Origin: Rhodothermales bacterium
Lineage (GTDB): Bacteria; Bacteroidota; Rhodothermia; Rhodothermales; VXPQ01
Direction of reading: 5' to 3'
Length of the DNA stretch: 64,000 bases
NCBI GenBank assembly: GCA_965117025.1
Contig: OZ220746.1
Span: 1,159,225-1,223,224 of the forward strand
A program made the position numbers and the translations under genes. The notes below the pieces were generated by a model. That model made no database searches. It was not told the origin of the DNA and worked only from the letters and a program-made list of their open reading frames with translations. Below are positions 105 through 14,818 of this stretch, piece by piece. Positions within the stretch are counted from its first letter, which is position 1. The number at the start of each line of letters is the position of its first letter.

Positions 105-2084
105 TTGCCCCGAATCATGCCAGCCGACCACATCGCCATTACGCTCCCCGACGGTTCCGTCCATAATCACGAAACCGGAATCACGGGGTACGAACTCGCC
201 AGCAGCATCTCGGCAGGCCTTGCCAGACAGGCATTGGCTGTACGAGTCAATGGGGAGGTATGGGATCTGACCCGGCCCATTGATCGGAACGCACGTATCG
301 AGATTCTGACCTGGAACGACCCGGACGGTCAGTTGACCTTCCGGCATTCCACAGCGCATCTCATGGCTGAGGCGCTCGAAAGCTTGTTCCCCGGTGTGAA
401 GTTCGGCATCGGGCCACCTATCGAACAGGGATTCTATTACGATGTAGATACCGGCGATCAAAAAATCGGCACGGACGATCTGGAACGCGTTGAGAAGCGG
501 ATGCGGGAATTGGCTGCACGCGACGTGGCATACGAACGAAAGGACATCCCGAAAGACGAGGCGATCCGGTATTTCCGGGACAAGGGTGACGAATACAAGC
601 TGGAACTGCTCGAAGACCTCGAGGACGGTACGATCACATTCTACCGGCAGGGTGACTTCGTCGATCTGTGCCGCGGCCCCCATATCCCTTCGACGGGCCG
701 CATCAAGTATGTCAAGCTTCTCAACATCGCCGGGGCCTACTGGCGCGGGGACGAACAGCGGCCCCAGCTGACGCGCATCTATGGCGTCAGCTTCCCGAAA
801 AAGAGTATGCTCGACGAGCATCTCGAACGGCTTGCGCTTGCAGCGCAGCGCGACCACCGCAAGCTGGGCAGGGAACTGGGGCTTTTCACCTTCGACCGGC
901 AGGTAGGCGCCGGGTTGCCGATGTGGCTGCCCCGAGGAGCGGTGCTGCGGGAAACGCTCATGGATTTTCTGAAAAAAGAGCAGCTCTCGCGGGGATATGA
1001 ACCTGTGGTTACTCCACACATCGGACGCCTCGAACTGTACAAAACGAGCGGGCATTATCCCTATTACCGGGAAAGCCAATTCCCGCCGATGCTGGACGAA
1101 AACGAAGCCGAAGAAGGGTTTCTGCTGAAACCCATGAACTGTCCGCATCACATCCGTATCTACGCAAACCGGTTGCACTCCTACCGGGACCTGCCGGTAC
1201 GTTATGCAGAATTCGGCACTGTCTACCGTTACGAACAATCCGGTGAACTGGGCGGATTGACCCGTGTGCGCGGGTTCACGCAGGACGATGCCCACATCTT
1301 CTGCACCGATGAACAGGTGAAGGACGAATTCAAAAACGTGATCGACCTGACGCTGACTGTATTGGGAGCGCTGGATTTTACCGATTTTCAGGCGCAGATT
1401 TCCCTGCACGACCCGGCGGACCGCGAAAAGTACCAGGGCGACGAGACACGTTGGGAAGAAGCCGAACGGGCTATACGCGAGGCGGTTCAGGAAATGGGGA
1501 TGGATGCGGTAGAGAAAGCAGGAGAGGCCGCCTTCTACGGCCCCAAGCTCGACTTCATGGTCAAGGATGCGCTGGGACGCGAATGGCAATTGGGCACAGT
1601 GCAACTGGACTACAACCTGCCGGAACGGTTCGAGCTTTCCTATGTCGGGGCAGACGACAAGAAACACCGGCCGGCGATGATCCACCGGGCGCCGTTCGGT
1701 TCGCTGGAGCGATTCATCGGGGTGCTGATAGAACACTGCGGCGGCAACTTCCCGCTGTGGCTGGCTCCCGTGCAGGCAATGGTCATTCCGATCTCCGAAA
1801 ATCAACGCGAATACGCCGAGGAAGTAGCTGCACGGCTGCGTGAACACGGCATCCGCGTGGAGACGGATCACCGCAATGAGAAAGCGGGATACAAGATCCG
1901 CAGCGCCGAGGTGAACAAAACACCCGTCATGCTCATCACCGGCGCACGCGAACAGGAAAAGGGCACGGTCTCGGTACGACGGCATGGCCAGGGAGAACAG
2001 GATACCATATCCGTCGAGGATTGCGTAACGCGGATGGCAAACGAGATCGCCGAGGGAAAGAAGCGTTCAGAAACCTCTGATTAA
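105..2084 (+). CDS. thrS: threonyl-tRNA synthetase
   Basis: 659-aa ORF. N-terminal TGS-like ITLPDGSV, an editing-domain motif FRHSTAHLMAEA, and class II core motifs (MNCPHH, GFTQDDAHIF, RAPFGSLERFIGVLIEH). It sits in the conserved thrS-infC-rpmI-rplT-pheST order. The start may instead be the second Met at 117. Confidence 0.95.
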   Translation: MPRIMPADHIAITLPDGSVHNHETGITGYELASSISAGLARQALAVRVNGEVWDLTRPIDRNARIEILTWNDPDGQLTFRHSTAHLMAEALESLFPGVKFGIGPPIEQGFYYDVDTGDQKIGTDDLERVEKRMRELAARDVAYERKDIPKDEAIRYFRDKGDEYKLELLEDLEDGTITFYRQGDFVDLCRGPHIPSTGRIKYVKLLNIAGAYWRGDEQRPQLTRIYGVSFPKKSMLDEHLERLALAAQRDHRKLGRELGLFTFDRQVGAGLPMWLPRGAVLRETLMDFLKKEQLSRGYEPVVTPHIGRLELYKTSGHYPYYRESQFPPMLDENEAEEGFLLKPMNCPHHIRIYANRLHSYRDLPVRYAEFGTVYRYEQSGELGGLTRVRGFTQDDAHIFCTDEQVKDEFKNVIDLTLTVLGALDFTDFQAQISLHDPADREKYQGDETRWEEAERAIREAVQEMGMDAVEKAGEAAFYGPKLDFMVKDALGREWQLGTVQLDYNLPERFELSYVGADDKKHRPAMIHRAPFGSLERFIGVLIEHCGGNFPLWLAPVQAMVIPISENQREYAEEVAARLREHGIRVETDHRNEKAGYKIRSAEVNKTPVMLITGAREQEKGTVSVRRHGQGEQDTISVEDCVTRMANEIAEGKKRSETSD

Positions 2085-2474
2085 AGACGCATGGACGAGG
2101 ACCTTGGGACGCGTCTTCTCTCAAAACATAAACGTGCGGTTGGCCGCGAGCTTGCAGGATATCCCGGGCCCTATGTTTTGTTCGAATGCGCATCCCAAGG
2201 TCCCTGTTCTCGGTTGCGATTTTGCGGTTCGGCGTTGGATGGTCTTGTTGCGCGCCGCGGATCGTTCCGGCGAAACCCAGTGGATTTCCCCGATTTCGCC
2301 AGCGTTTATAGCAGCGCTTTTCCTGGTTCCTCTGCACAACCTTGTTACATTTCGTGTGAAACCAAATCATCCCGGCTCGCGTGAAACAGATTTTGGGGGA
2401 CATGTATACATGCCCCTGCCTTCCCCAGGCGGTACGCCTGAGCCACCAGAATAACTCCCGGACCAAACCCCTTT

Positions 2475-3011
2475 ATTCACCAACCAAAAAGACACAGAAC
2501 CATCGCTCGTAAAGTACGCATCAACGAAGATATCCGGGCCAATATGGTTCGAGTCGTAGATCCCGGCGGAGAACACCATGTAGTCTATATCGACGAGGCC
2601 TTGCAGCGGGCTCGCGCACATAGAATGGACCTGGTCGAGATTGCACCATCGGCCGACCCCCCGGTTTGCAAGATTGTCGACTACGGAAAATTCCGTTATG
2701 AACAACAGAAAAAAGGGAAGGAGCAGCGCAAAAAATCGCAAACCATCCAGCTGAAAGAAGTCCGTTTCCGCCCCCACACCGACACGCACGACTTTGAATT
2801 CAAAACGCGCCATGCGCGCAGCTTTCTGCAAAGCGGGAACAAGGTCAAGGCATGGGTACAGTTTCGCGGCCGGGACATCATCTACAAGGAGCAGGGCATG
2901 GCTCTGCTGCAACGATTCACTGAGGATTTGCAGGATGTGGCGCGGATCGATCAGCCGCCCCGCATGGAAGGACGCCGCATGACCACGATTCTGACCCCGG
3001 ACAAAAAGTAG
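2475..3011 (+). CDS. infC: translation initiation factor IF-3 (non-canonical ATT start inferred)
   Basis: The ORF-track ATG at 2544 begins at MVRVVDPGGEH. The in-frame upstream codons encode RKVRINEDIRAN, the conserved IF-3 N-terminal motif. The frame is open only from 2442. The only initiator-like codons there are ATT (2475), ATA (2451) and ATC. An AUU start is the classical infC autoregulatory feature. Confidence 0.85.
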   Translation: MHQPKRHRTIARKVRINEDIRANMVRVVDPGGEHHVVYIDEALQRARAHRMDLVEIAPSADPPVCKIVDYGKFRYEQQKKGKEQRKKSQTIQLKEVRFRPHTDTHDFEFKTRHARSFLQSGNKVKAWVQFRGRDIIYKEQGMALLQRFTEDLQDVARIDQPPRMEGRRMTTILTPDKK

Positions 3012-3055
3012 GATACGCTGATAGCGGGGGCCCCGGCGCACAAGAAAACGGGAAC

Positions 3056-3084
3056 TTGACAGCTATCGGCAACGTATTTATAGT
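3056..3084 (+). promoter_or_regulatory. sigma70-like promoter candidate (TTGACA-17 nt-TATAGT) in the infC-rpmI spacer
   Basis: TTGACA at 3056-3061, an exact 17-nt spacer, then TATAGT at 3079-3084. A similar TTGAAT-17-TATATT sits upstream of rpsL, which suggests this promoter type is used in this genome. Confidence 0.45.
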
Positions 3085-3147
3085 TTGGGTCTTTTGCACA
3101 AAAACAAGCCTGCCATACTCCGTAGTAGCACAGGCATGCACATTGCG

Positions 3148-3224
3148 AAAAACGACCAAAAATAGCCTGAAAAAGCTCGAAAATAGCCCAAAAAGGCTAA
3201 AAAAGACCCGAAATAGCCCAAAAA
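3148..3224. repeat. phased A-tract block with three copies of AAATAGCC(C)
   Basis: Eight A3-A6 tracts start at 3148, 3158, 3170, 3180, 3190, 3199, 3211 and 3220, with a mean spacing of about 10.3 bp. The exact 14-mer AAATAGCCCAAAAA occurs at 3181-3194 and 3211-3224. A related AAAAATAGCC is at about 3158-3167. Confidence 0.7.
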
Positions 3225-3269
3225 CACGCACCTTTGTGACACCCCGAACGCGCCCGGCGTCAGATGCTT

Positions 3270-3464
3270 ATGCCCAAGATGAAATCAAATAGTGGAGCCC
3301 GGAAACGTTTCAAGGTGACCGCAACCGGGAAGCTGGCCCGGAAAAAGGCATACAAAAGCCATATCCTGACCAAGAAATCGGCGAAACGCAAGCGTGGCCT
3401 GCGTGAAAGTACGCTCGTCGACAAAACCGACACGCCGCGAATGCAACGGCTCATTCAATCCTGA
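3270..3464 (+). CDS. rpmI: 50S ribosomal protein L35
   Basis: [33 protein letters not shown] matches the L35 N-terminal pattern (MPKxKTxxGAAKRFK). The ORF-track start at 3264 adds two residues (ML). Confidence 0.93.
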
Positions 3465-3480
3465 TTGTCCCTTTATTCTT

Positions 3481-3831
3481 ATGCCACGTACCGCTCACAG
3501 CGTAGCGTCGAGAAGGCGCCGCAAAAAAGTACTCCGGATGGCCAAGGGCTATCGCGGCGCGCGCTCGAAAATTTATACCGTTGCAAAGCATTCCGTCGAG
3601 AAAGCCCTGACATATGCCTATCGGGATCGCCGGCAGCGCAAGCGGGTGTTTCGGCGCCTCTGGATTACGCGCATCAATGCAGCGGCACGTCTGAACGATA
3701 CCACCTACTCTCGTCTCATGGGAGGGCTGCGGAAGGCCGGCATTGGCCTGAACAGAAAGGTGCTCGCGGATATGGCTGTCCACGATCCGGAAACGTTCCA
3801 GCGTATTACACAACATATCACCGGTAAATAA
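3481..3831 (+). CDS. rplT: 50S ribosomal protein L20
   Basis: The internal Met (residue 30 of ORF 3394..3831) gives [30 protein letters not shown]..., a typical L20 sequence. It follows rpmI directly. Confidence 0.93.
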
Positions 3832-3845
3832 GCGGGCCTGGCAAG

Positions 3846-4838
3846 ATGCCCGACGACATCCTGAAAGATATCGAGTCGGAAATCATTGACTCGAAGGAAA
3901 CTGCCGAGGCGTTCCGGGTCAAATACCTGGGGAGAAAAAGCGGAAAAATCACCGGGATGCTCAAGCGAATTCCGGAAGCTCCTCCGCAGGAACGAAGAGA
4001 ACTCGGCAGGCGCATCAACGAACTCAAAAAAAGGGCGGAAGAGCGCCTGGCGTCTTTCGAGGCCGATCTGCATACGCCGGACGCTGCCGGGCCGCAAACA
4101 GGCATTGATCTCACGCTTCCAGGACGCCCCCCGGCGCCTCCGGGTTCTATTCATCCGCTGACGCACACGCTGAACGAAATCGCTCGCGTCTTCGAAGGGT
4201 TCGGGTTTTCGATCGCCACCGGACCCGAAATCGAAACGGAATGGCATAATTTCACGGCGCTGAATTTCCCGTCGGACCACCCCGCGCGGGACATGCAGGA
4301 CACCTTCTTTCTGGAGCCGGACCGTGTCCTGTTGCGCACGCACACATCGCCCGTGCAAATACGCACCCTGCTGACCGAACAGCCGCCTGTACGCGTCATC
4401 GTGCCCGGGCGGGTGTACCGCAACGAAGCCGTTTCCTACAAATCGTACTGCCTGTTCCATCAGGTGGAGGGGCTGTACGTGGACGAAGGAGTTACCTTTG
4501 CCGACCTGAAACAGGTGCTGCGCCTGTTTGTGCAAGCGCTGTTCGGCGCCGATGCCCGGATGCGCTTCCGTCCCAGTTTTTTCCCGTTCACCGAGCCCAG
4601 CGCCGAGGTGGATATCTGGTGGGCGGACGAAGCTTTGGCGGGCAATGGGCGCTGGCTTGAAATCCTTGGATGCGGCATGGTGGATCCCAATGTATTTGTT
4701 GCCGTCGATCTGGATCCGGAACGATGGACCGGGTATGCTTTCGGGATGGGGATCGAGCGTATTGCCATGCTGCGGTACGGAATCCGCGACATCCGTACGT
4801 TCTATGAAAACGATATACGGTTCCTGGAACAGTTTTGA
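3846..4838 (+). CDS. pheS: phenylalanyl-tRNA synthetase alpha subunit
   Basis: 330-aa ORF with an N-terminal coiled region and class II core motifs ([48 protein letters not shown]). Confidence 0.95.
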
Positions 4839-10401: not shown

Positions 10402-10917
10402 CTACTCTATTTCGAGAAGAAGATCGTTCTTGCCGACCGCATCGCCGGGCGCTACATGCACCGCTCGGACGGTACCTCCTCTTTCAATACGCAATTCGTT
10501 CTCCATTTTCATGGCCTCGAGGACCAGGGCGCCGGTTCCCGCCTCGACATGTTGTCCCGGTTCCACGGCCACGGACAGAACCATACCAGGCATAGGCGCA
10601 TGCACTTTCAGCATGTCGCTTTCAACTCCCCCGGATAACCCGAAACGTTCAAGCAGCAGCGCCCGTTCGTCTTTCAAAGACACATCGAACGTAGCCCCGC
10701 CGACCCCTATGCGCCGACGATCCCCGGATTCTTCCAGAACCACCGCCACATAGCTCTTGCCATCTATCAGCAAGGCCATGCGTTCTTCGTCAAGGCGTTC
10801 GTATGAAAACGGGACGGTGCGGCCATTACACGTCAACTGATCCGCGCGCACGGAAACTTCCATAACCCGACCGGCGCATGCTATCTGAAAATGTTCTGAG
10901 GCTCGTTTTCTCGCCAT
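10402..10917 (-). CDS. biotin/lipoyl-attachment (biotin carboxyl carrier) domain protein
   Basis: The C-terminal domain carries the biotinyl-lysine motif LEAMKMENEL and a flanking hammerhead pattern (VHAPMPGMVLSV...GDAVGKNDLLLEIE). Confidence 0.8.
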   Translation of the reverse strand: MARKRASEHFQIACAGRVMEVSVRADQLTCNGRTVPFSYERLDEERMALLIDGKSYVAVVLEESGDRRRIGVGGATFDVSLKDERALLLERFGLSGGVESDMLKVHAPMPGMVLSVAVEPGQHVEAGTGALVLEAMKMENELRIERGGTVRAVHVAPGDAVGKNDLLLEIE

Positions 10918-10995
10918 AGTCCGGATCGGGAGCGTTTTTATGTAATATAAGGGGCTTATAGCGAATAGTTCACATGGAACACGTTGGAGTTATTT

Positions 10996-11004
10996 TGGTA
11001 TAAT
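10996..11004 (+). promoter_or_regulatory. extended -10 promoter candidate (TGgTATAAT) for tnpB, implying a near-leaderless mRNA
   Basis: TGGTATAAT at 10996-11004 ends 7 nt before the tnpB ATG (11012). The -35 region is poor (GGAACA). It lies in the AT-rich left flank of the insertion. Confidence 0.3.
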
Positions 11005-11011
11005 TCTTTGA

Positions 11012-12253
11012 ATGACAAGAGTTTATACATATCGTATTGAGCATTTGACTCCGGCGAAACATTGCCGATTGGAGGCGTTTTTCTCCCACCTGACGTGGCT
11101 GTACAATCAGGGTGTGGAGTATTGCCGCGCCCAGCATGCCGAAGGCGCAAAGACTCCAACGTATTACGATCTGTGCAAGTGGTTGACCGGCAAGCGGGGC
11201 CAAGATATTCGAACTGGTCGGTGGAATGCGTCGTGCCAGCGTTCGGTTCTGAACCGCATCCACCGTGGATACGACAAGTTCTTCCGTGACCACAAGGGTT
11301 TGCCTCGTTACAAGTCTTTTGACCGGGGCGTCCGGTCGTTCGAGACGGAAGCGGCAAAGCCCCGCAAGCGCAAGAACGACAAAGGGCATTACGTACAGAT
11401 CAAGGGATTGGGCCGATTGTCATTTACGGACACTCGCGGCTTTCTCGACGATGCCACGGTCAAGATTGTCCGCGTTGTGCGTACCCCATTGCGCTACGAG
11501 ATACAGCTTGTATGCGACGTACCGGAACCTTCGCGGGTCGTTGACAAGCGCGATGTGGTCGGCATAGACCTGGGAGTGAAGTCGTCTGTAACGCTATCGA
11601 ACGAGGTGCAGTACCGCCCACTCGCCCACGACGACACGCGCCGCAAAAGGCTACAGCGCAAGGTATCCCGCGCCAAATGTGGCGGCAATGGGCGTAAGAA
11701 AGCGAAGGTGCTGCTGGCAAAGGAGAGTAGGCGCATTTCGATTCGCCGCCACAATGCCATTCACCGAATGACGACCGAGATCGTCAAGACGCACTCTGCG
11801 AATCTGGTTCTGGAGGACTTGGAAGTACAGAATATGACCGCATCCGGCGGAAGCCGCAAGCGTGGTCTGAATCGTTCCATGCTACAACAGGCATGGGGAA
11901 AAATCGGAACCCAGTTGATTTACAAGGCTGAGAGCGCCGGAGGCCAGTGCGTACGGGTTCCACCGCATCACACGACGCAGACATGCAGTAATTGTATGAA
12001 TCTGCCCCGTGAGTCCATAGACCTGTCGGTGCGCATCTACGAGTGCGAGCACTGCGGTTATGTAGCGGATCGGGACGTAAATGCGGCACGGAATGTCCGT
12101 CGGAAGGGACTTGACTTCTTCCACCGGGTGGGGCTATCCCCGGAGCGTCAGGCGGAGGCAGCGAAACCGGTAAGATTGCACGGTACTTCGGTACCCGATA
12201 GCACGGTCATGGCGCGGAACCGTAGCATTACGAGCACACAACCTGTCAAGTAA
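11012..12253 (+). CDS. tnpB: TnpB, an IS200/IS605-family (IS1341-like) RNA-guided RuvC nuclease
   Basis: 413 aa. The N-terminus RVYTYRIEHLTPAKHCRLEAFFSHLTWLYNQGVEY resembles the OrfB_IS605 N-terminal pattern. RuvC-I is VVGIDLGV (D186). RuvC-II is LVLEDLEV (E268). The zinc ribbon is C325-x2-C328...C345-x2-C348. RuvC-III is ADRDVNAARNV (D353/D355). Confidence 0.9.
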   Translation: MTRVYTYRIEHLTPAKHCRLEAFFSHLTWLYNQGVEYCRAQHAEGAKTPTYYDLCKWLTGKRGQDIRTGRWNASCQRSVLNRIHRGYDKFFRDHKGLPRYKSFDRGVRSFETEAAKPRKRKNDKGHYVQIKGLGRLSFTDTRGFLDDATVKIVRVVRTPLRYEIQLVCDVPEPSRVVDKRDVVGIDLGVKSSVTLSNEVQYRPLAHDDTRRKRLQRKVSRAKCGGNGRKKAKVLLAKESRRISIRRHNAIHRMTTEIVKTHSANLVLEDLEVQNMTASGGSRKRGLNRSMLQQAWGKIGTQLIYKAESAGGQCVRVPPHHTTQTCSNCMNLPRESIDLSVRIYECEHCGYVADRDVNAARNVRRKGLDFFHRVGLSPERQAEAAKPVRLHGTSVPDSTVMARNRSITSTQPVK

Positions 12254-12263
12254 TGAATATAAG
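12107..12263 (+). ncRNA. putative omega-RNA (reRNA) scaffold overlapping the tnpB 3' end. The boundaries are approximate.
   Basis: Three hairpins are readable in the non-conserved C-terminal tail codons 366-413. They are CCGGG/CCCGG at 12124-12143, GGTAC-TTCG-GTACC at 12182-12195 (a UUCG tetraloop), and ACGGT/ACCGT at 12203-12223. The position matches where omega-RNAs lie in characterised TnpB elements. Confidence 0.4.
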
Positions 12264-12312
12264 TCCCAATGCTTCCATGGACAGCGCTCCAGGTCACTCA
12301 CGTACGAAGAAA

Positions 12313-12543
12313 ATGTGGAAATGGGCGATCCTGATCATCGGCGCCCTCTTTTTTCTTACCGTCCTGCGCGAAGCCATCGACCCGTACGGCGACCAGCCGT
12401 ACATAGAAATCACGCATGGAGACCATGTCCACTATGTACCGCACGATCGGGACCCGAAGGTTTCCATCAGCAAATTTCCCACGGTTCCACCCGGACCGGA
12501 TGAAATCATTACGCCGGAAGGACGCATCGTGCCAAAGGAATAA
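12313..12543 (+). CDS. small single-pass membrane protein with a histidine-triad-like HGDHVHYVPH motif (putative metal binding)
   Basis: The TM segment is WKWAILIIGALFFLTVL, followed by ITHGDHVHYVPHDRD. This resembles the HxxHxH (HGDHYHYIP) zinc-binding triad of streptococcal Pht proteins. The ORF-track start at 12253 overlaps the tnpB stop (TAATG), so the Met at 12313 is preferred. Confidence 0.6.
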   Translation: MWKWAILIIGALFFLTVLREAIDPYGDQPYIEITHGDHVHYVPHDRDPKVSISKFPTVPPGPDEIITPEGRIVPKE

Positions 12544-12586
12544 CGAACCCGACGCGGCGAGGCGCTGGCGAAAAAGGGAAACTTTC

Positions 12587-14818
12587 CTACCACAGCGCCT
12601 TGATCAGGACTTTAACGTTACGCCCCTGCTCAGGCATGATGCTCTTTACTTTCGAAAGATGGTCCCGGTATTCGGCGTTCGTGGCATTCTCCACCCCGAT
12701 ATCGAAGGTGTACAAAATACGACCCAGAGAGAGGTAGTACTGCGCATGCGCCCCGAACACGACATACCCATCGGTCGGCTCCTCGAATTCCCCCAGACGA
12801 TCCTGCCGCCGCGCCGCCTCCGCGGAACCGGACAGCCTGATCTTCCCGCGGGCGTACGCTGCTTCCAGCCGCCCCCGCAAGGGAGGAATGAAGGACATCG
12901 GCTCGTCGTCGTCGATTAGCGTACCCCGGACATACGCGCCCGACCAGGAAAGCATGACGGAAGGCGCCGCCTGCAGCGAAAAGGAAGCTTCCGACCCCGT
13001 CATGCGGACCGACGAACCGGTTTGCTGATATTCCGTCAGCAGGGTGCGCACGTTGAGCCGGCCCGTATTTCTGGGGTAAATGTAATCCTGAATATGGTTT
13101 CGATACGCATTCAGCGACCCGGAGAAACGCGCGCTGCGGTATTCCGCGAACGCTTCGAAGCCCAGGCCCTTTTCGACGCCGAGGTCCGCATTGCCTATTT
13201 CGAAAGCATAGGCCGCCAAATGAGGTCCGGTTGAGAAAAGTTCTTCGATCCCCGGCATGCGAATGGAGCGCACGCCGCCCAGGCCCGCGGAGAAATGGTC
13301 GCCGAATCGCCGCAAGACCCGAAAAGAGCCGGAAACGCCCCCGGTCGTCCGGTTGCGAATCCGTCCGGCGCGCGTTTCCTCGCCCACAGCGAAGCGCCCG
13401 GTGGTGCGGGGACGTACGGCGCGTATATCGTACCGAAGCGCGCCCTGAAGCGACAGGTTCCTCAGATTGATATCCTGATACCGGAACGCCGCGGCCGTCC
13501 ATTCCCGGGAGTTCGGCGTAAACGTAAATCCGCCGGAAGCAAAATCCCGGTGTCCGGCCCAGATACTCGTCAGACTGTTGCTTCTGCGGCCATGGACGCG
13601 GGACAGAATCCGGCCGTAATACGACAGGAGTCCGAACTCAATGCCCAGCGACCCGCTCGCTTCGTATTCCTGATGAAAATACCTCGAAAGCGATGCCTCG
13701 AATTCCAGGTGCGAGAACCGGGGAATCGCATCCAGCAACAGGCCCTTCGCTTTCAGGTAACGACGGGATAACTCGATATCCACGCCGTTCGGATGCGCCC
13801 CGACGAATCCGCCCGGTATGCCGTACCGGGAAGCGTAGTAACTGCCCGAAACACCCGCATGCCCCCACGAACCGATACGGCTCGCGCTGACAGAACCGTT
13901 TCCGGTCGTCAAATCGGTGTTGGCCAGTACCCCGACCGGCGTGGACACGTCTCCCGCATTGCGCAAGCTGCCGTCGGCGCGCACCGCAAAGCCGCCCGCA
14001 GGCGCTTCGACGCTGAACCCGCTCGAAATCCCGTCGTGGGCGGATTGCCCTTGCAGCACGGCCACCACATGCGTCTCCGGCGGCCTGGTCGCAGGCACAT
14101 ATCCGCGGACCGCGTTCACCACGCCGCCCAGCGCGTTCGGCCCGTACAGCAGCGCCGCCGGGCCGCGAACCACCTCAATCCGCTCCGTCATCAGCGGTTC
14201 TATCGCAACCGCATGATCGGCGGACGTGGCGGACAGGTCTCCGGTGCGCCCGCCGTCCTCCAGGACCAGCAGCCGCTCGCCGCCCAACCCGCGCAACACC
14301 GGGCGGGCGGGAGCGGGCCCCATGGATCGCATGGAAATGCCGGGTTCGTTGTCGAGCGTTTCGGCGATCGTCGTTCCGAGATGCTGCCGAAGCCGCTTGC
14401 CCTCCATATCCATATCGGCCTCGCGGAGCGCGACGGACTCGCGTTGCCCGTCCACGAAGACTTCCCCCAATTCAATCGGAGAAGCCGACATGCGCAGCAC
14501 GACGCGAGACGTATCCGAGGCGCCGCCCACCGCGACCTGGCTCGTCAGCGACTCATAGCCTATGCGCCAGGCGGTAAGCGTGTAGACCCCCGGCTCCAGA
14601 AACCGCATCTCGAAACGGCCTTGCCGATCCGTTCTGGAACTGCGGTTGGCGTCTTCCGCCAGCACCTGGGCATGGCGCACGGGTTCTCCGGTTTCCGCAT
14701 CTTCTACGGAGCCCGAGATCACCGCCGTATGCTGGGCTTGCAGCGTCCCGGCGACCGCCATCGCGCAACACGCTGCAAGCCCGAGGCGGCAAGCAAGCGA
14801 GGATGTACTACAACGCAT
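12587..14818 (-). CDS. TonB-dependent outer-membrane receptor with an N-terminal carboxypeptidase-regulatory-like domain
   Basis: 743 aa. Signal peptide, then CarboxypepD_reg-like ISGSVEDAETGEPV...GVYTLTAWRIGY. The plug region contains ISMRSMGPAPARPVLRGLGGERLLVLEDG. A long beta-barrel region ends in the aromatic terminus LIKALW. Confidence 0.9.
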   Translation of the reverse strand: MRCSTSSLACRLGLAACCAMAVAGTLQAQHTAVISGSVEDAETGEPVRHAQVLAEDANRSSRTDRQGRFEMRFLEPGVYTLTAWRIGYESLTSQVAVGGASDTSRVVLRMSASPIELGEVFVDGQRESVALREADMDMEGKRLRQHLGTTIAETLDNEPGISMRSMGPAPARPVLRGLGGERLLVLEDGGRTGDLSATSADHAVAIEPLMTERIEVVRGPAALLYGPNALGGVVNAVRGYVPATRPPETHVVAVLQGQSAHDGISSGFSVEAPAGGFAVRADGSLRNAGDVSTPVGVLANTDLTTGNGSVSASRIGSWGHAGVSGSYYASRYGIPGGFVGAHPNGVDIELSRRYLKAKGLLLDAIPRFSHLEFEASLSRYFHQEYEASGSLGIEFGLLSYYGRILSRVHGRRSNSLTSIWAGHRDFASGGFTFTPNSREWTAAAFRYQDINLRNLSLQGALRYDIRAVRPRTTGRFAVGEETRAGRIRNRTTGGVSGSFRVLRRFGDHFSAGLGGVRSIRMPGIEELFSTGPHLAAYAFEIGNADLGVEKGLGFEAFAEYRSARFSGSLNAYRNHIQDYIYPRNTGRLNVRTLLTEYQQTGSSVRMTGSEASFSLQAAPSVMLSWSGAYVRGTLIDDDEPMSFIPPLRGRLEAAYARGKIRLSGSAEAARRQDRLGEFEEPTDGYVVFGAHAQYYLSLGRILYTFDIGVENATNAEYRDHLSKVKSIMPEQGRNVKVLIKALW

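Follow-up and report, generated by a model that had tools for sequence, protein, structure and literature searches.

A candidate TnpB guide-RNA scaffold in a Rhodothermales element with ends like those of IS1595-family insertion sequences

The window analyzed here is a 64,000-nucleotide (nt) stretch of contig OZ220746.1 (assembly GCA_965117025.1, positions 1,159,225 to 1,223,224, forward strand) from a Rhodothermales bacterium, and it includes a tnpB gene within a small mobile element. Comparison with related loci makes it very probable that positions 12102-12267 of the window, on the plus strand, encode a structured RNA that serves as the guide scaffold of TnpB, i.e., an omega-RNA. Its carrier (10951-12267) is, judging by its relatives, a non-autonomous element of a family that makes 8-bp target-site duplications and whose ends are common to DDE insertion sequences (ISs) of the IS1595 family. 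A sequence-only reading of the same DNA had already proposed a scaffold that shares the tnpB 3′ end, extends up to the right end of the element and carries on into flanking DNA, and covariation, pseudoknot topology and the position at which conservation stops all point the same way. An omega-RNA is expected at this place in tnpB, and the gain is thus a new, well-supported RNA family without an Rfam match, for which a covariance model and a structure are now at hand; less ordinary is the DDE-transposon context.

Conserved RNA structure over the tnpB 3′ end

Homologous loci were obtained from a genome scan (L001-L006, from Rhodothermales metagenome-assembled genomes (MAGs) and one ‘Gammaproteobacteria’ MAG) and from a protein search that returned 299 homologues at 91-30% identity, with the contigs of ten of these providing L087-L099 and L105-L107. 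A metagenome scan yielded a further 80 TnpB loci, all too distant (24-33% identity). Close relatives were not found in three IMG/VR scans, nor were relatives above 33% identity found in annotated plasmid and phage collections. Pair counts are based mainly on A5, a structure-blind MAFFT alignment of 15 sequences (L098 was left out of these statistics, as the L098/L107 subclade has a different terminus), with controls in which helix partners were slid by 1-3 columns, and with shuffles (n=500). A second count used an alignment of 16 sequences fitted to R1, our covariance model of the RNA; this alignment leans towards structure. The features of the RNA are as follows.

12102-12267, plus strand: candidate omega-RNA scaffold of 166 nt, from covariation and the R1 match
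12102-12122 (12102-09 with 12115-22), plus strand: hairpin P1; 92.5% paired, 4/8 pairs compensatory
12124-12143 (12124-28 with 12139-43), plus strand: hairpin P2; 97.3% paired, 4/5 pairs compensatory
12130-12135 with 12262-12267, plus strand: pseudoknot, its 5′ strand GGGGCU in the P2 loop; 96.7% paired, 3/6 compensatory
12145-12215, plus strand: long arm in which P3 encloses P4 and P4 encloses P5, from pair counts; P3 and P4 also predicted by RNAalifold
12145-50 with 12210-15, plus strand: P3; 98.9% paired, 4/6 pairs compensatory
12166-69 with 12204-07, plus strand: P4; 90% paired, 3/4 pairs compensatory
12182-12195 (12182-86 with 12191-95), plus strand: hairpin P5, GGUAC-UUCG-GUACC; 5/5 pairs compensatory, in the R1-fitted alignment as well
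12216-12225, plus strand: unpaired stretch GGAACCGUAG, conserved in A5
12226-12255, plus strand: hairpin P6, CAUUAC (12226-31) with GUAAUG (12250-55); 81% paired, 6/6 compensatory in the R1-fitted alignment

The scaffold overlaps the last ~50 codons of tnpB and stops at the final base of the element. Over P1-P5 and the pseudoknot, 93.7% of the 491 cells in A5 are paired, compared to 35-51% when partners are slid, changes on both sides are seen in 23 of the 34 pairs, and the covariation score is 0.489 (0.05-0.08 in slid controls); none of the 500 shuffles matched any of these observed measures. The R1-fitted alignment gave 91.5% paired and 27/34 compensatory pairs. Because A5 includes ~30 G.U cells, e.g., G.U in 9/15 sequences at columns 41/49 (12108 with 12116), the helices work on the plus strand only. 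Consistent with this, R1 has a single match in the window (12101-12267, plus strand only). R1 also detected two loci on which it had not been trained, both at the homologous place: L098 (45.6 bits, E 8e-12) and L107 (58.6 bits, E 1e-17). It had no match in the 80 distant metagenome loci.

Individual helices display the variation expected of base pairing. The pseudoknot, first spotted by inspection as a complementarity between the P2 loop and the last six bases of the element (AGUCCC), occurs as GGGACU/AGUCCC, GGGGCU/AGUCCC, GGGAUU/AGUCCC, GGGCAU/AUGCCC, GGGCAU/AUGUCC and GGGCAC/GUGUCC. P5 is found as GGCAC/GTGCC, AGCGA/TCGCT, GACGG/CCGTC and GGCCCTGC/GCAGGGCC, with caps mostly of the UNCG type, and P4 (CGGU at 12204-07 with ACCG at 12166-69) covaries (AU 6, GC 4, UA 2, CG 1). 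P6 varies in both sequence and length and holds the tnpB stop codon in its 3′ strand; by eye, a hairpin is present at its place in every locus.

The sequence-only reading had built its scaffold from three local hairpins, and all three sequences are where it had placed them (CCGGG/CCCGG at 12124-12143, GGTAC-TTCG-GTACC at 12182-12195 and ACGGT/ACCGT at 12203-12223). A test for compensatory substitutions across homologous 3′ regions, as it had suggested, revealed them in the first two and none in the third. The first hairpin is P2 and the second, capped by UUCG, is P5, and both are real. The third (12203-07 with 12219-23) is 74.7% paired with no compensatory change, a value reached by 420 of 500 shuffles; its closing pair is broken in 9/15 sequences, and its 5′ arm instead pairs upstream as the 3′ strand of P4, its 3′ arm falling in the conserved unpaired stretch. 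The proposed scaffold hence stands for two of its hairpins and not for the third, and P1, the long-range P3/P4, P6 and the pseudoknot have to be added to it. RNAalifold on the MAFFT alignment also recovered the first hairpin, one upstream hairpin and two long-range helices, with the third hairpin absent.

Some further pairings were not retained. RNAalifold's local pairs within the P2 loop (12130-31 with 12137-38) were dropped in favor of the covarying pseudoknot. Upstream helices in 11898-12100, such as GCGG/CCGU (~12083-12100), and a GGUU/AACC pairing (~11956-59 with 12218-21) are invariant or show wobble changes only and are not claimed, and a long-range pairing of 11041-56 with 11935-50 is not conserved.

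The coding sequence that the RNA overlaps is the following.

11012-12253, plus strand: tnpB, a 413-amino-acid (aa) open reading frame (ORF) for an apparently intact, predicted RNA-guided nuclease

The tnpB product matches Pfam domains OrfB_IS605 (PF01385) and Cas12f1-like_TNB (PF07282) and the NCBIfam model guided_TnpB (‘RNA-guided endonuclease TnpB family’; 206 bits vs a cutoff of 100), and falls below the IS200-specific and IS607-specific cutoffs of NCBIfam. ISDra2 TnpB (8BF8/8EXA/8H1J) aligns to residues 30-367 (E 9e-25), with GIDLG, LEDL and DRDVNA lining up with its catalytic motifs, the last within the RuvC-III motif DRDVNAARN (residues 353-361). The RuvC residues D186, E268 and D355 and both zinc-finger CxxC pairs are invariant across 37 TnpB homologues. 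Homology to solved TnpB structures ends at residue 367, leaving residues 368-413 without any alignment. In the family alignment, conservation likewise collapses past residue ~368, where the tail differs in sequence and length, in agreement with the earlier suggestion that the end of tnpB after RuvC-III lacks protein conservation. The place of the stop codon differs between loci, indels shift the frame, and the ORF of L093/L094 extends beyond the element end. The C-terminal tail of TnpB is free of protein-level constraint.

Nucleotide variation among the ~92%-identical copies differs between the gene body and the RNA-coding stretch of the ORF, with variable sites by codon position numbering 45/28/81 and 4/8/8, respectively. 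In the RNA-coding stretch these sites fall in loops, turn a G.U pair into G-C or A-U, or compensate each other (12184 with 12193 in P5); a further P5 change, at 12185, yields a G.U pair. Codon-like, third-position variation that breaks the stems, which the sequence-only reading had named as evidence that would speak against an RNA, is thus the opposite of the pattern observed. Across 13 loci, synonymous-site identity rises from ~0.45-0.55 to 0.62-0.68 from residue ~341 on. A separate peak (0.71-0.75 vs ~0.5 elsewhere) lies at 11912-11985, where tnpB encodes YKAESAGG, ~280-355 nt before the element end; RNAalifold helices in this peak lack compensatory support.

The closest known counterpart is the omega-RNA of ISDra2 from Deinococcus radiodurans (8BF8, 8EXA, 8H1J), a 116-nt scaffold with four stems in which nucleotides -5 to -3 form a pseudoknot with -103 to -105, stem 2 is long-range and has stem 3 within it, and stem 4 comes before the pseudoknot strand (PMC10097598). 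Both RNAs lie on the same strand as a tnpB gene, over its 3′ end, and reach the right end of the element, followed by a guide (here a candidate) derived from the flank, the TnpB proteins being homologous (E 9e-25). In both, the nucleotides directly 5′ of the guide form a pseudoknot with a site >100 nt upstream. The order of parts is also alike, with 5′ hairpins carrying the upstream pseudoknot strand, long-range P3/P4 around P5, then P6, the pseudoknot strand at -6 to -1 and the flank. Unlike in ISDra2, the scaffold here measures ~166 nt compared to 116 nt resolved, its pseudoknot 5′ strand lies in a hairpin loop, and the carrier is not of the IS200/IS605 type; the two RNAs have no sequence similarity. 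Further differences are a candidate target-adjacent motif (TAM) of R-Y-G rather than TTGAT, and a duplication that separates this TAM from the left element end. With the sequence-level features of a TnpB omega-RNA found at this locus, the TAM as a candidate, we conclude that the RNA would work like one. We also infer that it is expressed, processed, bound by TnpB and involved in homing; its 5′ end is likewise a prediction.

Element ends and kinship with IS1595

The ends of the carrier were defined by comparison with its closest relatives.

10951-10974, plus strand: left terminal inverted repeat GGGGCTTATAGCGAATAGTTCACA, where homology to L001, L004 and L002 begins
12244-12267, plus strand: right terminal inverted repeat, whose last 6 nt (12262-67, AGUCCC) provide the 3′ strand of the pseudoknot
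10943-10950, no strand assigned: left flanking 8-mer TAATATAA, at the place of the left duplication in relatives

Nucleotide homology to the ~92%-identical loci L001, L004, L002 and L006 extends from 10951 to ~12269, with unrelated flanks on both sides. At protein identities as low as 48%, all loci share a final conserved block, …TATAAGTCCC or a version of it, and conservation stops past 12267. The two ends of the window element are imperfect inverted repeats of each other over 24 nt (10951-74 with 12244-67, 71% complementary), and relatives have inverted repeats of 20-24 nt, including 22 perfect bases in L105. Outside these repeats, perfect 8-bp duplications are found in L001 (AAACTGGC), L004 (AATCTTTC), L002 and L006 (AAACACAT), L003 (AAAGATTT), L099 (TATTTAAT), L105 (AAATATAT) and L106 (TTCATTTG). 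Among ten related insertion sites, the flanking 8-mers agree at 8/8 positions in seven, 7/8 in L088, and 6/8 in L092 and L096.

This is not the architecture of IS200/IS605 elements, which the sequence-only reading had assumed. IS200/IS605 and IS607 elements have neither inverted repeats nor duplications, and IS200/IS605 elements instead have subterminal hairpins and insert directly 3′ of a tetra- or pentanucleotide (PMC13565253). Autonomous IS200/IS605 relatives have a Y1 (HUH) TnpA; in the loci that came with gene calls, neither this nor a serine TnpA was called beside tnpB. An IS200/IS605-like element would not have inverted repeats and 8-bp duplications, and the window element is, by this evidence, not one.

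A connection to a specific DDE family is provided by L099, where positions 1744-2986 are a complete 1243-bp IS1595-type IS with a 23-nt inverted repeat (91% complementary) and a transposase that matches DDE_Tnp_IS1595 (PF12762, 1.7e-37), NF033547 (176.7 bits vs a cutoff of 75) and Zn_ribbon_IS1595. After a further 14 nt come tnpB and the RNA and then, at 4253, another right end, so that the locus has three ends. The duplication TATTTAAT flanks 1744 and 4253 (unit 1736-4261), which indicates that the composite moved as a whole, by the left end of the IS and the right end of the tnpB module. The ends of the window element (GGGGCTTATA / TATAAGTCCC) can be compared with those of the L099 IS (GGGAATTATA / TATAATTCCC) and with the right end of the composite (TATAAGTCCC). 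In the ISfinder table, the ISNwi1 group has the end consensus ggnnatTAT. The short 5′ untranslated region (UTR) of tnpB in the window aligns to the internal right end of L099, and this suggests that solo-tnpB elements may be composites whose IS part has collapsed. A 66-aa ORF of a family without assignment (2751-2951) lies between the transposase gene and tnpB of L099.

IS1595 members usually make 8-bp duplications and encode a zinc-ribbon DDE transposase (PMC8101967), and the family includes ISNwi1-type elements and ‘plus’ variants with passenger genes. GG-initial inverted repeats and, in relatives, 8-bp duplications are points of agreement with the elements studied here. The window element has inverted repeats common to an autonomous member. 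Unlike IS1595-family members, it has no transposase gene, and its cargo of tnpB plus a predicted guide RNA is one for which we found no report in this family. Its relation to IS1595 could at most be that of a non-autonomous derivative.

Two other loci also bring IS1595 and tnpB element types together. In L105, an IS1595 DDE remnant (2827-3399) lies 420 nt upstream of the tnpB element, outside its repeat and duplication, and was not counted as an association. P0110 (227 aa) joins a TnpB TNB domain to a C-terminal piece from a DDE_Tnp_IS1595 domain.

Prokaryotic OMEGA systems outside IS200/IS605 and IS607 are considered rare and uncharacterised in a 2026 review (PMC13565253). In its main text, Altae-Tran et al. 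2023 (PMC10691335) describes DDE-associated TnpB branches with inverted terminal repeats, in which solo copies have the ends of autonomous elements. As in our family, these are prokaryotic tnpB genes in DDE elements, ≤250 bp from an end; unlike here, a three-ended composite, a guide that includes the duplication and an RNA structure are not described in that text. The DDE families named with TnpB in the parts of these sources available to us (PMC10691335, PMC13565253) are IS630, ISL2 and IS1031, with IS1595 not mentioned in the main text of the former or in the latter, and a literature search for IS1595 and TnpB returned incidental co-mentions only. One of the unnamed DDE branches (DDE-1 to DDE-6) of PMC10691335 may correspond to the TnpB family of the window. 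Neither the IS1595-type context nor the three-ended composite nor a guide that includes the duplication appears to have been described. Eukaryotic Fanzor omega-RNAs in DDE transposons are another parallel, with a TnpB-family nuclease and a 3′ guide RNA in an element with inverted repeats and duplications, and an RNA that extends across the right repeat and into flanking DNA (PMC13565253). In Fanzors, the duplication, short and fixed, reportedly belongs to the TAM and scaffold, whereas in our family it is variable, 8 bp long and would belong to the guide; the nuclease of the window is a bacterial TnpB of the ordinary kind.

Candidate guide, proposed mechanism and competing explanations

Two short stretches just outside the element are the candidates for guide and TAM.

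12268-12287, plus strand: candidate guide AAUGCUUCCAUGGACAGCGC, the first non-conserved DNA past the scaffold, with an assumed length of 16-20 nt
10940-10942, plus strand: candidate TAM ATG (family R-Y-G), directly 5′ of the left 8-mer, with a putative role

The guide had been expected from ~12264, after an element end at 12263. Since the element ends at 12267, the guide would instead start at 12268 (AAUGCUUCCAUGG…). Flanks differ in every locus, and AAUGCUUCCAUGGACAGCGC occurs nowhere else in the window. At 11 independent insertion sites, the base directly 5′ of the left duplication (-1) is G in 11/11, and R-Y-G is found in 9/11 (binomial tail 3e-9), compared to a mirrored C-R-Y past the right duplication in 2/11. 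From these positions, R-Y-G may be the TAM, and the flank, over the length assumed, would act as guide. A short R-Y-G TAM combined with a ~410-aa nuclease could be of interest for genome editing.

How RNA-guided homing could serve DDE transposons, which make duplications, has been raised as a question (PMC13565253), and the geometry of this family offers a testable answer. The scaffold RNA (12102-12267) would come from the tnpB transcript, or from a 3′ portion of it, and fold into P1, P2, the P3-P4-P5 arm and P6, with the P2 loop forming a pseudoknot with the final six nucleotides of the element, and ~16-20 nt of flank from 12268 would then act as guide. As the right copy of the duplication directly follows the element, this guide would consist of the eight duplicated bases plus downstream DNA, with the 3-nt candidate TAM just outside the left copy. 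An unoccupied site, made up of R-Y-G, the 8-mer and downstream DNA, would present a TAM and a full guide match, and could be cut by TnpB. Both junctions of an occupied site would escape targeting, the left one matching the guide over 8 nt only and the right one having CCC at the TAM position. Cutting of empty or excised sites would favor restoration or spread of the element by recombination. In IS200/IS605 elements, cutting of empty sites by TnpB aids restoration and spread of the element, with a self/non-self logic that has been shown there. The geometry found here would reproduce that logic for an element that makes duplications.

Taken together, these observations lead us to a broader proposal that we advance tentatively and rate slightly short of an even chance. 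The TnpB/omega-RNA module would be a third-end add-on of an IS1595-family DDE IS that also left collapsed solo-tnpB derivatives, including the window copy; the 8-bp duplication would provide the first 8 guide nt, with the R-Y-G TAM abutting it; TnpB would tell empty from occupied sites of a cut-and-paste element; and phage-like copies (see below) would be stand-alone homing nucleases. The natural autonomous composite L099 and several non-autonomous copies are at hand for experiments.

A number of observations weigh against our interpretation. Folded as single sequences, 12040-12290 and 12101-12267 are unremarkable in stability compared to shuffles (minimum free energy z = +0.37 and +0.39), and a permissive Rfam scan of 10800-12700 returned chance lncRNA fragments only and no family match; as neither approach shows anything, the structure must be judged comparatively, and the covariation comes from only ~16 distinct, phylogenetically related sequences. 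In addition, the last 24 nt double as a transposase-binding repeat, which superimposes constraint at the DNA level on that at the RNA level. No DDE transposase gene was found within the window. The flanking 8-mers of the window copy (TAATATAA vs AATGCTTC) match at 2/8 positions only, and its empty-site target is consequently not reconstructible. TAM inference rests on the 11 sites, 6 of which have C at +1 past the right duplication, so that the G at -1 may partly be a symmetric transposase preference. For the window copy, each flank is typical on its own (TATG before the left 8-mer, AAT opening the right one), and we suspect an adjacent rearrangement or recombination between copies. An unoccupied allele of its insertion site might read …TTTTTATG + AATGCTTCCATGG…. 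No second tnpB copy was found within the window, and an empty-site look-up via the neighboring biotin-lipoyl protein found no record with the exact protein.

Three other explanations have to be weighed against a guide scaffold. The conserved region could be a structured 3′ part of the tnpB mRNA acting in cis, for instance on stability, on termination or in regulating how TnpB or the transposase is expressed, rather than a guide RNA. It is indeed on the same strand as the mRNA and contiguous with it, the promoter scan found no internal promoter, and guide use is a prediction. Nevertheless, the structure stops precisely at the element end with a pseudoknot directly before the flank, as in solved omega-RNA, the nuclease motifs are intact, an asymmetric motif occupies the place of a TAM, and the scan found no terminator-like site following on the plus strand, all of which make a purely cis-acting element unlikely. 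The region might otherwise reflect DNA-level and coding constraint only, i.e., a transposase-binding right end plus the TnpB C-terminus, with incidental hairpins. Such constraint would fit a terminal inverted repeat over the last 24 nt, a location inside an ORF and a single-sequence fold no stabler than shuffles. However, compensatory changes reach 166 nt from the end, far past the 24-nt repeat, the tail of the protein lacks conservation and varies in stop and frame, close copies lack a third-position excess, and in L096 the P2 loop complements the right end better than the left end does, so that we regard this explanation as very improbable. Least probable of all, and close to negligible, is the exact model of the sequence-only reading, namely an IS200/IS605-type element with three local hairpins and a guide from ~12264. 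Although two of its hairpins are real and the general place of scaffold and guide is right, the third hairpin is unsupported, the element extends to 12267, an IS200/IS605 design does not allow for inverted repeats and 8-bp duplications (PMC13565253), and no Y1 TnpA was called beside tnpB in the loci with examined gene calls. A guide scaffold thus remains the explanation that we favor strongly.

Related copies and neighboring features

Several homologues (L093:10001-11248, L094:1421-2668, L095:10001-11233, L097:10001-11212 and L005:3001-4206) are located on circular, phage-like contigs of 85-100 kb that carry capsid, tail-fibre, GH108 endolysin and integrase genes, and one phage-like contig of 100,560 bp has five paralogues (P0012-15, P0018). 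These copies are tightly packed between phage genes and keep the RNA (R1 89-137 bits) and the right-end motif, and no left inverted repeat or duplication was detectable in them. This suggests that they may be used as stand-alone RNA-guided homing nucleases.

The more distant subclade (L098:4093-4320 and L107:5079-5300) keeps P1-P6, adds a hairpin and has another terminus (…GTGGACYTCCCC). In L098, the GTGGACYTCCCC motif is repeated downstream, and in L107 a 496-aa protein with multiple helix-turn-helix domains, which is not a DDE transposase, is encoded 3 nt upstream of tnpB. In L004 (3001-4241, Rhodothermales MAG), tnpB is in two frames around residue 160, an apparent frameshift, and the RNA region is intact (164 bits).

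Upstream of tnpB in the window, a predicted promoter element was noted.

10996-11004, plus strand: TGGTATAAT, an extended -10-like box from sequence, ending 7 nt before the tnpB ATG

As a promoter, TGGTATAAT would give a nearly leaderless tnpB mRNA; the promoter scan found only a weaker site near the tnpB start, at 10969-10996. It is the stretch around this box, GGTATAATTCTTTG (10997-11010), that can be aligned with the L099 IS1595-type element at its internal right end.

Downstream, a small-protein ORF (12253-12543) has its mechanical start ATG inside the right inverted repeat, where it overlaps the tnpB stop. The true start is more likely the ATG at 12313 (MWKWAILIIGALFF…), which would give a membrane-like N-terminus. 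Automatic annotation could in this way fuse transposon sequence to the downstream small gene.

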